Positions 8,755-33,481 of a DNA stretch of 40,172 bases are shown piece after piece; the first letter of the stretch is position 1; each line of letters starts with the position of its first letter. A program made the position numbers and the translations under genes. This DNA is from a virus: UHGV virus genome UHGV-0207031. One strand, given 5' to 3'. The notes beneath the pieces were generated by a model. That model had not been told where the DNA came from. It saw only the letters and a program-made list of their open reading frames with translations, and did not search any database.

Positions 8755-9002
8755 AATTGCGGGTAAAATAAAATCCACTTCTGAAAATTCCCTTTCTATA
8801 CAATCCCCTGACATGCCAATTCGATGTATGCAGGGGACACCATTCTATAGTTCGCCACTCTCCGCAGTAGTTCGCAAAATCCCTTGCACAGCAGGCTCTC
8901 AATAAAATACCAGTTCGCCATAGTTCGCAATAGAACGTTGACAGCCGCATACTTCGGCGGGTAAAAAACGAGTAAATGATTTTACCCACCGGAATTTTAC
9001 CC
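8749..9002 (+). promoter_or_regulatory. probable attP: core TGCAGGGGACACCA (8829-8842) with upstream TTCGAT; AGTTCGC[C/A]A repeats at 8849, 8869, 8912, 8922; GGGTAAAA at 8749, 8761, 8959 and inverted TTTTACCC at 8980, 8995 abutting int ATG
   Basis: The core matches the 3' end (T-loop remnant, acceptor, ACCA) of E. coli tRNA-Arg(CCU) argW as remembered. It lies about 160 bp upstream of, and co-oriented with, int (canonical P4-family arrangement). The repeat arrays flank it with 10/20-bp phasing. Confidence 0.55.
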
Positions 9003-10160
9003 ATGCTCACCATCAAACAGATCGACGCAGCAAAGCCGAAAGATAAACCGTACCGGCTGCTCGACAGCAACGGGCTGTACCTTTATGTGCCGGTTACCGG
9101 AAAGAAAGTCTGGCAACTGCGTTACAAGCTCAATGGTAAAGAGAAGGTTTTGACGGTAGGCAAATACCCGCTCATGTCATTGCAGGAAGCCAGAGACAAA
9201 GCTTGGCTTGCCAAAAAGGATGTGTCTGTCGGTGTCGATCCGGTAAAGGCCAAAAAACTGTCAGTCAAAGACAACTCGTTCGGCTCTATATACCAGGAAT
9301 GGTACGAGCACAAAAAACAGGTATGGTCAGAGGTATACAGCACCGAACTGTCACGTATGTTCCAGGATGACATTCTGCCGTTGATTGGCGTGATGGAGAT
9401 TCACGAGATAGAACCAATGCAGATACTGGAGGTGATACGTAGGTTCGAAGAACGTGGGGCAATGGAGCGGGCCAATAAGGCGCGTAGGCGGTGCGGAGAA
9501 GTATTCAGGTACGCGATAGTTACCGGGAGAGCGAAGTATAACCCGGCTCCTGACCTTGCTGATGCCATGAAGGGATACAGGAAGAAGAACTATCCTTTCC
9601 TTCCTGCTGACCAGATACCTGCCTTCAACAAAGCACTATCTGGCTTCTCTGGAAGTATCGTATCAAAGATTGCGACACAGGTTTTGCAGTACACGGTACT
9701 GAGGACAAAAGAACTCCGGTCAATGCAATGGTCGAACGTCGACTTTGAAACCAGGACGATTACGATCGCCGAAGATGTGATGAAGGGGCGTCGCCCTCAC
9801 CTTGTACCAATGTCAGATCAGGTCGTCTCTCTGCTTGAAATGCTGAAGCCTATAACGCAGCCGATATCAAGCTTCGTTTTCGCCGGGCGCAATGACAAAA
9901 CAAAGCCGATCAGTGAAAACGCAGTTCTACTGGTTATTCGCCAGATTGGCTATGAAGGATTGGCAAGTGGCCACGGTTTCCGTCACCAGTTCAGCACCAT
10001 AATGAACGAGCATGAATGGCCCGCAGATGCCATTGAGAAGCAACTTGCGCACGCTAACAGCGGCTCCATTCGTGGGATATACAATCATGCTCAGTACATG
10101 GATAAGCGTCGGGAGATGATGCAGTGGTGGGCAGACTGGCTTGATGAGAAGGCATCATAG
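9003..10160 (+). CDS. int: P4/CP4-57-family tyrosine integrase (DUF4102 N-terminal arm-binding domain plus catalytic domain)
   Basis: MLTIKQIDAAKPKDKPYRLLDSNGLYLYV is a canonical N-terminus. C-terminal H..R..H..Y catalytic region (GHGFRHQF...IYNHAQY). Confidence 0.9.
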   Translation: MLTIKQIDAAKPKDKPYRLLDSNGLYLYVPVTGKKVWQLRYKLNGKEKVLTVGKYPLMSLQEARDKAWLAKKDVSVGVDPVKAKKLSVKDNSFGSIYQEWYEHKKQVWSEVYSTELSRMFQDDILPLIGVMEIHEIEPMQILEVIRRFEERGAMERANKARRRCGEVFRYAIVTGRAKYNPAPDLADAMKGYRKKNYPFLPADQIPAFNKALSGFSGSIVSKIATQVLQYTVLRTKELRSMQWSNVDFETRTITIAEDVMKGRRPHLVPMSDQVVSLLEMLKPITQPISSFVFAGRNDKTKPISENAVLLVIRQIGYEGLASGHGFRHQFSTIMNEHEWPADAIEKQLAHANSGSIRGIYNHAQYMDKRREMMQWWADWLDEKAS

Positions 10161-28159: not shown

Positions 28160-28627
28160 TTATTTCAGGCACTGCGTGTTGATGTATTCCTGCAGCGCTC
28201 TCAGGGCTGACTGGTCTTTCTTGATTCCGGATCGGATACCGAGAACGTTTCGTCCAGCAACTGGAGAGAGTTCGACGGTGGCATCATTGCCCATGCCGGA
28301 GGAGCCGGAGGTTTCGGTTGTGGCTGGCACTGGACACTTGCCTTTGACGAGCACCCGGCCACCATTATCAAGCTTGCGCTGCAGAGCATCATTTTCAGCT
28401 TTAGCATCTGCCAGTTCCTGTGTGTATTTGGCATCGAGCTCAGCAACATCTCGCTGCCGGGTTGTCATATCGGTGATGGTGGCGTTAGCCAGATTCAGCG
28501 CCTGAGTTTTCTCATCGCGCTGCTTCTTGTATTCGGTGGCGTTGTCGCGGTAGTGATTAACAGCCCAGCCAAGCGAAACAATGATGCAAACGACAACAGC
28601 AATGATGATTGCGGTTAACCGGCTCAT
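28160..28627 (-). CDS. Rz: i-spanin Rz
   Basis: [30 protein letters not shown]...[21 protein letters not shown] closely parallels lambda Rz as remembered. Confidence 0.9.
28201..28407 (-). CDS. Rz1: o-spanin Rz1 (outer-membrane lipoprotein) embedded in +1 frame of Rz
   Basis: [19 protein letters not shown] lipobox followed by a Pro-rich segment. Confidence 0.8.
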
Positions 28628-29100
28628 GATTTTGGCTCGTTTACCGTACCGCCAGCCTCTTTGAATTTGGCGATAAGGTTATCTGCTTTGTGCTCAAACT
28701 GACCGTAACCTGCTCCGGGGAGTGATGCCCAGATATTGCTGCAGCGATCGATGGCCTGACGGATGTCACCGGCGTCGATTAACTCCAGAGCGCGGCGCTC
28801 TTTAATCTGCTGCAATGCGACAGCGTCCTGGCTTGCAGGAGAGAAATCTTTCAGGCCAAGCTGCTTGCGGTAGGCATCCCACCAACGAGACAGCAACTGA
28901 TACCGACCGGCTGCCGTAGATTTGAGTTTCGGATTCAGCGTTACCAGCTTGCGAGGGTGATCTGAATAATCAGTGAATAACGAACCACCGACAATCACAT
29001 CGTATCCACGGTTGTTTGTAGGCTGTCCTTTTTTGTCAGTACCTTCTGACCATGCCAGCATGTCGAGGAATGCTTTACGCTGCGAGTTAATTGCTTGCAT
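28624..29100 (-). CDS. endolysin, lambda R-type lytic transglycosylase
   Basis: [19 protein letters not shown]...[41 protein letters not shown] nearly colinear with lambda R as remembered. Confidence 0.9.
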
Positions 29101-29407
29101 CGTCTACCCCTACCTTCTTGGCAGTGAATTTCTTGATAAGCGATCCGATTGTTGCCGTTCCCAGATAGCCAATAAACACGCTGCCGATATAGGCAAGGTT
29201 TGTACTCAGACCAATGAACACGAGAATGTCTCTTACGAACCAGGCAAACATCGCGCACATCAATCCATCAATAAGCGTCTTTGATAGCGTGTCTCCGTTA
29301 TAGCGGCCACGCAGGTACGCCATGATGAATGCCAGAATCGCACCAATGCCCTGCTCTTTGGCAGCTAGCAAAGCAGCGATGAAGTCTTGTTTGTAGGGCA
29401 TCTTCAT
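29087..29407 (-). CDS. class I holin (P22 gp13 / lambda S-like) with dual-start motif
   Basis: MKMPYKQ... dual-start motif. Three TM segments. Strong RBS GAGGAGAGAG. Confidence 0.85.
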
Positions 29408-29510: not shown

Positions 29511-29534
29511 AAAAAAGCCAGCGGCGATGCTGGC
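29511..29534 (-). terminator. intrinsic terminator between tRNA pair and holin (gccagc-atcgcc-gctggc + T6 on minus strand)
   Basis: Perfect 6-bp stem with the T-run only in minus orientation. Confidence 0.6.
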
Positions 29535-29591
29535 AAGATGAGGGTAAGGCAATGTCGGCTCTCTGTCCGAAGGGTCCCAGGTAGTGGGTTC

Positions 29592-29666
29592 TGGTGCCGG
29601 GCAAAGGAATCGAACCTCTGACGCGCAGCTTACAAGGCTGCCGTTCTGCCACTGAACTAGACCGGC
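29592..29666 (-). tRNA. tRNA-Thr (anticodon UGU)
   Basis: Cloverleaf GCCGGTCTAGTTCAGTGGCAGAACGGCAGCCTTGTAAGCTGCGCGTCAGAGGTTCGATTCCTTTGCCCGGCACCA. Anticodon loop cuUGUaa. One acceptor mismatch (6:67). Encoded CCA. Confidence 0.7.
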
Positions 29667-29671
29667 GAATT

Positions 29672-29747
29672 TGGTGGAACCCGATGGAATCGAACCATCT
29701 CCTAATGCTCTTCAGGCATCCGCGCGAACCATCTACGCCAGAGTTCC
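29672..29747 (-). tRNA. tRNA, anticodon GAA (Phe) by manual fold; unusual G37
   Basis: GGAACTCTGGCGTAGATGGTTCGCGCGGATGCCTGAAGAGCATTAGGAGATGGTTCGATTCCATCGGGTTCCACCA. T-arm GATGG-TTCGATT-CCATC. Anticodon loop cuGAAga. Confidence 0.5.
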
Positions 29748-29754
29748 AGATACG

Positions 29755-29783
29755 AAAAAGCCCAAGGCGTTAACCTCGGGCTT
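29755..29783 (-). terminator. tR'-like terminator downstream of late promoter (aagcccgagg-ttaacg-ccttgggctt + T5)
   Basis: 10-bp stem with one G-U pair, T-run on the minus strand. About 75 nt downstream of the predicted PR'. Confidence 0.55.
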
Positions 29784-29836
29784 GTATTCTTTGTGTCGAC
29801 AATCAAAGCTATGGCGACGATATCAGATTTACATGA

Positions 29837-29865
29837 AATATATGCGTTTCAGTTCGGTTTTGCAA
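29837..29865 (-). promoter_or_regulatory. candidate late promoter PR' (TTGCAA-17-TATATT) overlapping the 3' end of the Q-like gene
   Basis: -35 at 29865-29860 and -10 at 29842-29837 on the minus strand. Positioned like lambda PR'. Confidence 0.45.
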
Positions 29866-30538
29866 GACTTACATCTAAATTTGTCGCCTTTTGTTGTGAA
29901 CGTGATCGCGTTACAGAGATAAGCGCACCGCTATCGAGCCGCTTAAAGCTGTTACGCATAGCCAGCCAGTGAGGCAGATACGTTTCCGTCCAGGTCGATT
30001 TCGCTACGCCCGCCAGTTCTGCGAGCGCCTGGTATTCGTACGTCTCCCTCCCCGCCAGCTCAGCCTTAACGTCCTGAGCCGCCAGCCAGATAAGTTTCTT
30101 CAGGCGCTCCATCGTCTTGCCGGCCACCTTCTTCCCGCCAAGTTGTTCTCGGAACTCTGCCCACGCCCACTGGGTGATCGCCACCTGGTATTCGAAGCGG
30201 GTATTCTCGCTGTAGTTCCACAGCAGCCATGCTTTCTGATAGTCTTCCAGAGACAGGACAGCGCGGCGCCATGATGCGGTCACGAACTCAACCGGGCCCA
30301 CCAGCGCGATAGATGAGCCCTTTGCGCGGGATTGGCTGCCACTCATCGCTGGGCCGTCCGGGTTAACTTTCCGGCCGGTGACCGGGTCAGTGACTTTCTT
30401 CCGTCCCCGGCTGCGCGCCGTCGCGGTGAATTGCGCGTTCTCGGCGAAAGCTACCAGTTGCCCTTTCGTTGCCCCGCTGAGGTCCGCGGTCGCCACAATG
30501 AGCTGCTGACGTACGTATTCCAGTTGCTGACTGTTCAT
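29849..30538 (-). CDS. putative late-gene antiterminator Q
   Basis: 229-aa gene between the nin-like region and the PR'/tR' cassette. No motif was checked. Confidence 0.5.
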   Translation of the reverse strand: MNSQQLEYVRQQLIVATADLSGATKGQLVAFAENAQFTATARSRGRKKVTDPVTGRKVNPDGPAMSGSQSRAKGSSIALVGPVEFVTASWRRAVLSLEDYQKAWLLWNYSENTRFEYQVAITQWAWAEFREQLGGKKVAGKTMERLKKLIWLAAQDVKAELAGRETYEYQALAELAGVAKSTWTETYLPHWLAMRNSFKRLDSGALISVTRSRSQQKATNLDVSLAKPN

Positions 30539-32309: not shown

Positions 32310-32476
32310 GCGGATTTTCTCCTTGCTGCGAGGCGCAGCCATTTCTGATCCACCAGGCGGGCGGTGTAATCTTTCAGGGTCGGGATGTCGGACGGCTTAA
32401 CCACGGGCTTACGCTGGCGGCGCGCCGGAACGCGGAAGATTTCGTTTGTGATGACGCGGGAAAGTGGAGTAGACAT
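32306..32476 (-). CDS. hypothetical small basic protein (56 aa)
   Basis: ATGA coupling at both ends, between the HNH gene and the phosphatase. Confidence 0.4.
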
Positions 32477-33057
32477 CAGGCCTCCTGCTTATCGCGCAGC
32501 TGCTGGAACTCGCAGCCGGACGGGATCGGGCAATAACTCCATTTCATACCCCTGTGCTCACCTTGGTGACCATTAATTGAGGCATGCACCAGCGCAGGGT
32601 TGCATCCGTAATGCTTAGTCGACTGCATTGACGGGAACCAATATCCGAACCCCTTCCCTTCTGCGATTACAGGCCTTTTATTCTTATTTGAAAGGCCTGT
32701 TTCATTAGCATGCTTCATGTTCATCGCATGGGTGCACCACTCAAGGTTTTCTGGCAGGTTATTGTGCTTGTTGCTGTCTATATGGTTTACATGTGGATAG
32801 CCATGAGGGTTTGGAATAAATGCCAATGCCACAAATCTGTGGAGCAATTCATGCTTATTAGACAACGACACTCGAACGTACTGGGATGATGTGCAGCCTT
32901 TCAAAATGCGGCCTGCAATTGCTCTGGTTGTCCATGTCTTCTTGTCTTTTCCGCATGTATTCACTTTACGAGGCAAGCTTCTGACATGAGCAAGTGAGCT
33001 AACCTCAAAGCGGCCTTCATACCCCGGAACCGGCTTCCATACTTCATTCTCAAGCAT
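32476..33057 (-). CDS. HNH homing endonuclease (NUMOD4-type N-terminus plus HNH_3 motif)
   Basis: WKPVPGYEGRFEVSSLAHVRS (NUMOD4) and HVNHIDSNKHNNLPENLEW (HNH). Start overlaps the ninB 3' end by about 8 nt. Confidence 0.8.
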   Translation of the reverse strand: MLENEVWKPVPGYEGRFEVSSLAHVRSLPRKVNTCGKDKKTWTTRAIAGRILKGCTSSQYVRVSLSNKHELLHRFVALAFIPNPHGYPHVNHIDSNKHNNLPENLEWCTHAMNMKHANETGLSNKNKRPVIAEGKGFGYWFPSMQSTKHYGCNPALVHASINGHQGEHRGMKWSYCPIPSGCEFQQLRDKQEA

Positions 33058-33481
33058 GATCATGTCCTTTAGCGTGATATTCGGAATTAGCGGGAATCCG
33101 GAGCTTGATGCCGCGCTCTGCGCACCAGACTTCGATGCGGCGTAGGTAAAAGGTCATCTCTTCGGTGTCGAGTAGCTTTGTTGACTTCACCATCTTGGTA
33201 TCACCAAGAACGGTTACTGGCTTGGCAGGACAGAACATATCCTTCAGAAACTCATGAAGGTCTTCCTCGGTTAACTTGCTTTCGGAGTGATGGTTGACGG
33301 CAGATGCAACATCGCTATTCCACATCCAGAGAAGAGAATTTTGGGAAAGGCTACGCTTGTCCTTCCAGGGTTTGATGATGAGGCGATAGCAGTCGCCAGA
33401 TTCCAGCATTGGCTGTATCTGCTGCCCGATGGCGGAAAAGTTGGATTTGTGCAGACGAATGCCGTCTTTGTTCATGCTCAT
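33050..33481 (-). CDS. ninB: NinB (Orf-family recombination mediator)
   Basis: RSLSQNSLLWMWNSDVA resembles the lambda NinB RSLDQNRKLWA motif as remembered. Position in the nin region. Confidence 0.7.
   Translation of the reverse strand: MSMNKDGIRLHKSNFSAIGQQIQPMLESGDCYRLIIKPWKDKRSLSQNSLLWMWNSDVASAVNHHSESKLTEEDLHEFLKDMFCPAKPVTVLGDTKMVKSTKLLDTEEMTFYLRRIEVWCAERGIKLRIPANSEYHAKGHDHA

Follow-up and report, generated by a model that had tools for sequence, protein, structure and literature searches.

The Q82 family of lambdoid late antiterminators corresponds to PF06323 (PMC9388147). In the cassette of phage 82 the late promoter abuts the Q gene and a terminator comes after it, and pR' of phage 82 has been described as having a pause element that is extended -10-like, with GCC at +15-17 and the pause itself at U +25 (PMC5001585). 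Late leaders may also carry tRNA genes: in the Shiga toxin 2 (Stx2) phage 933W the order is Q, pR', qut, terminators, ileZ-argN-argO, terminator, stx. Shiga-toxin and Klebsiella phages are already known to have this design, and the element that we describe here, in UHGV virus genome UHGV-0207031, is another member. The whole stretch of DNA that was analysed, 40,172 nucleotides (nt), is called the window below.

We consider it probable that the region is the cassette for late-gene regulation from a P22-like temperate phage with a Q82-family antiterminator, that a two-gene tRNA insert sits between the two terminators of its leader, and that the tRNAs serve the phage as replacements of its own for host decoders. 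All the elements that an earlier note on this DNA had described were found on the minus strand where it had placed them. The observation made in that note is confirmed, and its interpretation is supported with three corrections, which concern the analogy to Stx phages, the second terminator and codon use. The parts of the cassette, in the order of transcription, are as follows.

29849..30538, minus strand: late antiterminator Q, Q82 family, 229 amino acids (PF06323)
29837..29865, minus strand: late promoter PR', TTGCAA-17-TATATT (promoter scan; conserved in relatives)
29817..29825, minus strand: candidate sigma-70-dependent pause element TGATATCGT (read from the sequence; inside the invariant block ATGTAAATCTGATATCGTCGCCATAG)
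29753..29833, minus strand: short PR'-tR' transcript, about 78 nt, IsrJ homologue (Rfam RF01393)
29672..29747, minus strand: tRNA-Phe(GAA), 76 nt, CCA encoded (ARAGORN; Rfam tRNA model, 56.5 bits)
29592..29666, minus strand: tRNA-Thr(UGU), 75 nt, CCA encoded, anticodon stem GCAGC/GCUGC (ARAGORN; Rfam tRNA model, 59.1 bits)
29535..29591, minus strand: conserved non-coding block (comparison of related leaders)
29511..29534, minus strand: second intrinsic terminator, a G+C hairpin of 6 base pairs (bp) followed by U6 (terminator scan)

The Q gene, the late promoter and the short leader RNA

The Q protein matches PF06323 with 279 bits (cut-off 25) over profile positions 1-217 of 220, i.e. nearly full length, and the earlier call of a Q-like gene is thereby borne out. 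It is 61% identical to AntQ of Gifsy-1, and no solved structure matches it by sequence. The stop codon is at 29851..29849, and the promoter (-35 hexamer TTGCAA at 29865..29860, a 17-nt spacer and -10 hexamer TATATT at 29842..29837) overlaps the stop and the last codons. An overlap of this promoter with the end of the Q gene had been proposed before; it is upheld by the scan and by conservation, both hexamers and the block ATGTAAATCTGATATCGTCGCCATAG being nearly invariant in 100 distinct related leaders. The leader motif (an 18-nt core from the initial transcribed region) is found in at least 120 viral contigs of the IMG/VR database, and in essentially all 120 the motif lies 21-30 nt downstream of the end of a gene for a PF06323 homologue, 44-100% identical to Q of the window. 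The promoter and leader are also present in 1,576 out of 5,426 complete Escherichia coli genomes (29%), where the copies lie under or beside genes annotated as 'bacteriophage antitermination protein Q'. As in phage 82, a PF06323 protein, a promoter that abuts its gene and a terminator follow one another; the window differs in having tRNA genes and a second conserved terminator block after tR'.

The consensus scans for promoters and terminators were at chance level, with three promoter-like sites against 1.7 expected and four terminator-like sites against 2.4. The weight of the assignment comes from the isrJ match, the conservation of the leader and the compensatory changes.

In the initial transcribed region, TGATATCGT is extended -10-like: it has the extended TG and four of the six hexamer positions (A2 and T6 among them), and it is followed by GCC and then by UUU-G. 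By description rather than by sequence, the leader of the window seems to fit the published account of phage 82 pR'. The best-conserved part of the short RNA is its promoter-proximal first ~25 nt, which is where a Q-loading or pause site would be expected.

Positions 29833..29757 match the Rfam isrJ model (RF01393) from end to end (model positions 1-75 of 75) with 58.9 bits (cut-off 37; E = 2e-8), and the fold of the short RNA has a predicted energy of -24.1 kcal/mol (z = -3.1). The tR' hairpin begins about 50 nt into the transcript; its stem (29783..29758) has 11 pairs, six of them G-C and two G-U, and closes a 4-nt loop, after which comes UUUUUCGUAUCU. At the tR' site, 66 out of 91 distinct relatives have a hairpin of at least 7 bp with a T-tail. 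The stem occurs in 29 distinct sequences, and it varies among relatives yet stays paired, through compensatory changes. The earlier note had expected a terminator with a 10-bp stem about 75 nt downstream of the promoter and a 6S-like short transcript: the terminator and the RNA of ~78 nt stand, and the stem is to be corrected to 11 pairs.

In Gifsy-1, isrJ is preceded by the same -35 and -10 hexamers, the first ~30 transcribed bases are identical to those of the window, and the length and the position of the terminator are equal. The difference is in the surroundings: an 874-nt insert (isrK-orf45-anrP) lies between Q (AntQ) and the isrJ unit of Gifsy-1, whereas the window is without it. A tRNA-Arg(UCU) gene is found ~300 nt beyond the Gifsy-1 isrJ unit. 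AnrP, encoded upstream of isrJ, was considered as a diverged Q and rejected, as it has no such similarity and the true Q (AntQ) is farther upstream. Where Q proteins are 80% identical to AntQ, an isrJ-type leader directly adjoins them, so the Gifsy-1 arrangement is derived. Gifsy-1 has two promoter-plus-terminator units after Q (locus L002, 1164-1290 and 2001-2087), with isrK beside Q and isrJ after anrP; AAATCTG occurs in both leaders, and either could be the cognate Q-loading site.

IsrJ has been described as an Hfq-binding virulence small RNA and not as a late leader (PMC2330248, PMC4825925), and it is likewise a free-standing Hfq-binding small RNA, with no late-promoter-leader label, in PMC7380047. 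Hfq binding and trans-regulation are reported only for the Salmonella copy (PMC2330248). Late leaders have been proposed as a source of small RNAs, with IsrK and lambda 6S RNA cited and IsrJ absent (PMC7547250). From the comparisons above we conclude that isrJ-family RNAs are the 6S/StxS-type short transcripts of Q82-family cassettes.

Two tRNA genes between two terminators

Both tRNAs are called as cloverleafs by ARAGORN and by the Rfam tRNA model RF00005 (cut-off 29 bits), each with a 7-nt anticodon loop, U33 and an encoded CCA, and with the anticodons that had been read before (Thr-UGU, and GAA in a tRNA with G37). After the tR' stem come a 10-nt gap, tRNA-Phe, a 5-nt gap and tRNA-Thr. The consensus scan of the minus strand gave no further sigma-70-like site and no separate tRNA promoter, although weak or unusual promoters may escape such a scan. 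With only a 10-nt gap and no other promoter-like site, PR' is the only visible route to transcription of the tRNAs, and their Q-dependence is a sound inference.

tRNAs are present in 35 of the 104 related leaders for which enough sequence is available downstream, and the first tRNA often starts 78-86 nt past the motif. The sets found in this slot vary: Arg(UCU), Asn(GUU), Met/Ile(CAU), Gly(UCC), Thr(UGU) and Phe(GAA). The Phe-Thr pair recurs in at least 15 viral contigs and is annotated in public records of Klebsiella phages. Temperate phages of Klebsiella and Enterobacter (Mulock, ST101-KPC2phi6.1, ST16-OXA48phi5.2 and ENT1) have the same tRNA-Phe(G37) and tRNA-Thr families in the same slot. 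In Mulock the tR' hairpin is identical, and the conserved block and second terminator are there in degenerate form; this phage differs in its set (Asn-Phe-Thr-Arg), in an upstream regulator that has no Pfam match and in its tRNA-Thr, which is a different, fully paired variant. The set of ENT1 is Asn-Gly-Thr.

As in 933W, the tRNA genes lie between the leader terminators and the first late genes and a terminator follows them; tRNAs after late terminators are found beside Q proteins of all three families. The cassette of 933W differs in its Q, which belongs to the Q21 family (PF06530), in its tRNAs (Ile, Arg, Arg) and in the ~370 nt from qut to the tRNAs, which include a putative tRNA promoter, pT, for which the window has no room. 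A tRNA start site has been mapped at a pT-like position in the Sakai phage (PMC7547250). Of the proposed coupling to late gene expression 'as in Stx phages', then, the order of the parts holds, but 933W is annotated with a putative tRNA promoter of its own, and the scan of the window gave none.

The second terminator (GCCAGC-ATCGCC-GCUGGC plus U6) shows compensatory changes on both sides at five of its six pairs across 15 relatives. The block of ~55 nt at 29535..29591 is almost invariant and makes up, with this terminator, a unit of ~75 nt (29591..29511). Block and terminator together are present in 39 out of 96 related leaders, with tRNAs or, in many cases, without, and are degenerate in Mulock, which has a different regulator; for the block we found no covariation, a weak fold, no Rfam match and no evident function. 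In tRNA-free leaders the second terminator is ~100-125 nt upstream of the first late open reading frame. The earlier note had put an intrinsic terminator at 29511-29534 before the holin gene, and it is there; it is not a part of the tRNA insert, being found in tRNA-free leaders as well. So the basic leader has two terminators, with the tRNAs sitting between them, and the layout did not evolve for the tRNAs.

E. coli is used as the stand-in for host tRNAs and host codon use. In tRNA-Phe the anticodon loop reads CUGAAGA, which confirms G37, and the 9-nt D-loop (AGAUGGUUC) is borne out in the Rfam alignment. G37 is present in all 86 complete family members collected with a search pattern that ends at the anticodon; as this pattern is blind to position 37, an artefact of the search is ruled out. 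Where variants of this tRNA differ in the acceptor, anticodon or T stem, the changes are compensatory. A37 is found in E. coli pheV and also in a more distant relative, that of Erwinia phage phiEt88. A tRNA with G37 cannot be a substrate of MiaA/MiaB, and bacterial TrmD acts poorly on A36-G37. What we take to be the Phe identity set of E. coli (G34, A35, A36, A73, U20, U59, U60 and G10) is present, with differences at 26, 44 and 45. The literature search found no paper that describes G37 in a phage tRNA-Phe. The same loop with G37 is seen in unrelated phages: T5 (L291, 7097-7171), PG7 (L284, 48-122) and FBKp34 (L286, 61-136). PG7 is a T4-like Enterobacter phage (Karamvirus), and FBKp34 is a virulent Klebsiella phage (Stephanstirmvirinae) whose tRNA-Phe is 97% identical. 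The suggestion that this tRNA is phage-specialised is supported by the invariance of G37 in the family and its recurrence in T5 and PG7.

When representative genomes were scanned for an 18-nt anticodon-arm pattern, ~70 chance matches were expected from the size of the collection; the scan gave no host identification, and true family members in it are limited to Enterobacterales (Xenorhabdus, Symbiopectobacterium, Chimaeribacter and Siccibacter). In the genome and viral scans together, 68 out of 162 loci have no tRNA at the match. Xenorhabdus has many solo copies of the G37 tRNA-Phe (L133, L156, L175, L188 and about 25 further loci), with at least nine contigs in X. hominickii; the sequence shared around these copies ranges from ~100 nt to several kilobases (kb), and at L133 the tRNA is flanked by terminator-like hairpins, one on each side.

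The acceptor mismatch noticed earlier in tRNA-Thr is real (U6:C67, flagged in the Rfam alignment), and the anticodon loop reads CUUGUAA. Eight loci, and the Enterobacter phages ENT1 and BHUENT3/6, have this tRNA in identical sequence. Its relatives in Hafnia and Edwardsiella phages (89-93% identical) keep the 6:67 mismatch while other pairs have compensatory changes, and this persistence in diverged, otherwise compensated relatives supports specialisation of this tRNA too. The elements that we presume to be the ThrRS identity set (G1-C72, C2-G71, G35 and U36) can be read in the sequence. One otherwise identical tRNA-Thr (L034, IMGVR_UViG_2811995303_000009) reads CGCUGUAA instead of CCUUGUAA at its anticodon loop and has lost U33, by decay or sequencing error. 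Both tRNAs of the window look functional because they have high scores, encoded CCA, compensatory stem changes and, in tRNA-Thr, the ThrRS identity pairs.

Some phage tRNAs are known to counter defence nucleases. Those of T5 for Lys, Thr and Asn jointly inhibit PARIS; the recognition and cleavage site of the PARIS nuclease AriB is defined at tRNA positions 39-41, and mutations at 39 and 41 make T5 tRNA-Lys resistant (PMC12409363). The anticodon arm reads UAAGC|U in the window, UAAUC|A in E. coli thrU and UAAGC|A in T5 tRNA-Thr. Compared with host-type thrU (E. coli assumed), the tRNA-Thr of the window is thus changed at 39 and 41, within the AriB site and at both of the positions that give resistance in T5 tRNA-Lys; like T5 tRNA-Thr, it reads UGU and has G39 where the host has U39. 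A tRNA-Thr(UGU) of phage 21 rescues cells from P2 Old, which cleaves a paired CNG motif, and resistance goes with loss of the motif or a shortened anticodon stem (PMC12445682). The window tRNA keeps C28-A-G30 / C40-U-G42 in a full 5-bp stem. It differs from the nuclease-evading phage tRNAs in that the phage is temperate and the tRNAs are in a late leader and not in a large cluster; evasion by the tRNA-Thr of the window would be a prediction from its sequence.

Proposed mechanism and competing explanations

Following the established Q paradigm, PR' would fire constitutively and RNA polymerase would pause near the promoter at TGATATCGT. Without Q it would stop at tR' and release the IsrJ-like RNA; when it leaks through tR', the tRNAs would be transcribed and the second terminator would halt it before the holin gene, yielding tRNAs and no holin. 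With Q loaded at the pause, polymerase would pass both terminators and make one long late transcript. RNase P and the 3' processing enzymes would then release both tRNAs from its 5' part, and tRNA output would rise together with late gene expression. In the role that we favour, the phage would supply tRNAs of its own to stand in for host decoders late in infection: tRNA-Thr(UGU), differing from host thrU at 39 and 41, would serve ACA-rich phage genes, and tRNA-Phe, whose G37 precludes MiaA/MiaB modification, would be independent of that host pathway or of any factor that recognises the host loop.

Since the window is all phage and has no host codons in it, codon use was compared with a 50-kb sample of E. 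coli K-12. In the phage, ACA is used 15.3 times per 1000 codons and for 27% of Thr; in the sample the figures are 5.7 and 11%. The enrichment, 2.7-fold overall and 2.95-fold in late genes, places ACA among the three most enriched codons.

Several points weigh against the favoured account. Phe codons occur at 32 per 1000 in the phage, compared with 46 in the E. coli sample, and tRNA carriage shows no association with codon use across 94 related loci, which are partial and related to each other: ACA is at 10.3 and 10.7 per 1000 in relatives with and without its tRNA, respectively, and p > 0.15 for all five tRNA/codon pairs. At five U, the U-tract of tR' is short, which could allow considerable leak-through and make expression of the tRNAs partly constitutive. 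As the CNG motif is retained, resistance of tRNA-Thr to P2 Old is not expected, and no defence nuclease that targets bacterial tRNA-Phe was found in the literature search. Q-dependence, the pause site, the efficiencies of the terminators and the processing of the tRNAs are all inferred. The codon comparison proposed for ACA and UUC has a mixed outcome: ACA is enriched, but Phe codons are not, and which relatives carry tRNAs is left unexplained.

Pure codon compensation would have the tRNAs only boost decoders for codons that the ~50% G+C phage favours over a more G+C-rich host, with their oddities put down to neutral drift. The enrichment of ACA speaks for it, as do the other tRNAs of the slot, which read the classic rare codons AGA, GGA and probably AUA. 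Phe codons, however, are rarer than in E. coli, the codons of a given tRNA are used to the same extent by relatives that carry it and by relatives that lack it, and an invariant G37 that recurs in unrelated phages is contrary to drift. Codon compensation therefore fits Thr, fails Phe and leaves the patchy cassette unexplained; we regard its pure form as possible but doubtful, and a replacement or counter-defence role would be at least as likely. It is rather unlikely that the short RNA is the main product, a trans-acting, Hfq-binding regulator like IsrJ or StxS, with the tRNAs as passengers. Such a role could draw on the full-length isrJ match, on the effect of IsrJ on invasion and effector translocation in Salmonella (PMC2330248) and on StxS, the PR'-tR' RNA of Stx phages, which binds Hfq and regulates host genes (PMC7547250); but the conservation peak in the first ~25 nt is explained by a Q-loading or pause site with no need of a trans role, and a regulatory RNA would be compatible with the explanation that we favour rather than exclusive of it.

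Expression of the tRNAs mainly in the lysogen, by leakage at tR' or from an unrecognised promoter, would have them serve host or prophage, with the second terminator insulating the holin gene. In favour are the constitutive activity of PR'-type promoters in lysogens (PMC7547250), the short U-tract of tR', the flanking terminators, which would permit tRNA output without lysis, and the example of Stx phages, whose tRNAs have their own promoter (933W annotation; PMC7547250). Against these stand the 10-nt gap with no promoter-like site between PR' and the tRNAs, the 11 pairs of tR' and the presence of both terminators in tRNA-free leaders, and we think this account improbable. That the tRNA genes are functionless, as decaying passengers or recombination scars, is very improbable: the acceptor-stem mismatch of tRNA-Thr, the relative with a damaged anticodon loop (L034) and the patchiness of the cassette would fit decay, but both tRNA families have compensatory stem changes, the 6:67 mismatch is itself conserved across relatives of 89-93% identity, and the scores are well over the thresholds.

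The surrounding genome and wider meaning

The leader is followed by a lysis cassette that was assigned with Pfam, and the structural genes come after it on the same strand.

28160..29407, minus strand: lysis cassette overall (Pfam)
29407..29087, minus strand: holin, lambda-S-like (PF05106)
29100..28624, minus strand: endolysin (no Pfam match; position in the lysis cassette)
28627..28160, minus strand: Rz (PF03245 / PF06085 found in the Rz/Rz1 genes)
28449..28201, minus strand: Rz1, embedded (PF03245 / PF06085 found in the Rz/Rz1 genes)

The holin starts with Met-Lys-Met (ATGAAGATG, 29399-29407, minus strand), the dual-start arrangement of lambda S (holin plus antiholin). Prophage stretches of E. 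coli with ~76% identity to the lysis part are annotated as 'glycoside hydrolase family 24 protein' and 'phage holin, lambda family'. The window (1-40172; 49.9% G+C) appears to consist of a single genome, in permuted order, of a P22-like temperate phage whose structural genes are ~77% identical to their counterparts in HK620 and Sf6; no host DNA is visible within the window, and the left arm has no close match in E. coli. The plus strand encodes a recombination (bet, exo) and methylase arm and the integrase (8976-10160), and the minus strand the replication, nin, Q, lysis and structural genes. In the nin region, an open reading frame of 195 amino acids (32476-33063, minus strand; motif HVNHIDSNKHNN) reads, as judged from its sequence, like an HNH-type homing endonuclease.

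Taken alone, the element is of little consequence, being a late switch of the textbook kind with a Phe-Thr cassette for which public phage genomes already have annotations. The identity of isrJ as a late-promoter transcript of the Q82 family bears on how the phenotypes of IsrJ are read, as the unit is widespread, and the alignment of related leaders is a ready-made view of the Q-loading region for the sole Q family that is still without a structure. G37 in phage tRNA-Phe is a clean, recurrent and testable difference from the host tRNA. Going beyond the replacement role that we favour, the space between the terminators may, in temperate enterobacterial phages, be a hot-swappable slot for nuclease-resistant tRNAs, in which leakage at tR' would protect lysogens at a low level and Q would give a lytic burst, with G37 as an escape from a host factor that recognises the A37 (ms2i6A) loop, be it a defence nuclease or dependence on MiaA/MiaB; we offer this as a speculation that is unlikely to hold. 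A variable slot between conserved terminators, with a content that codon use does not predict, is in line with the recent idea that phage tRNAs act in counter-defence.

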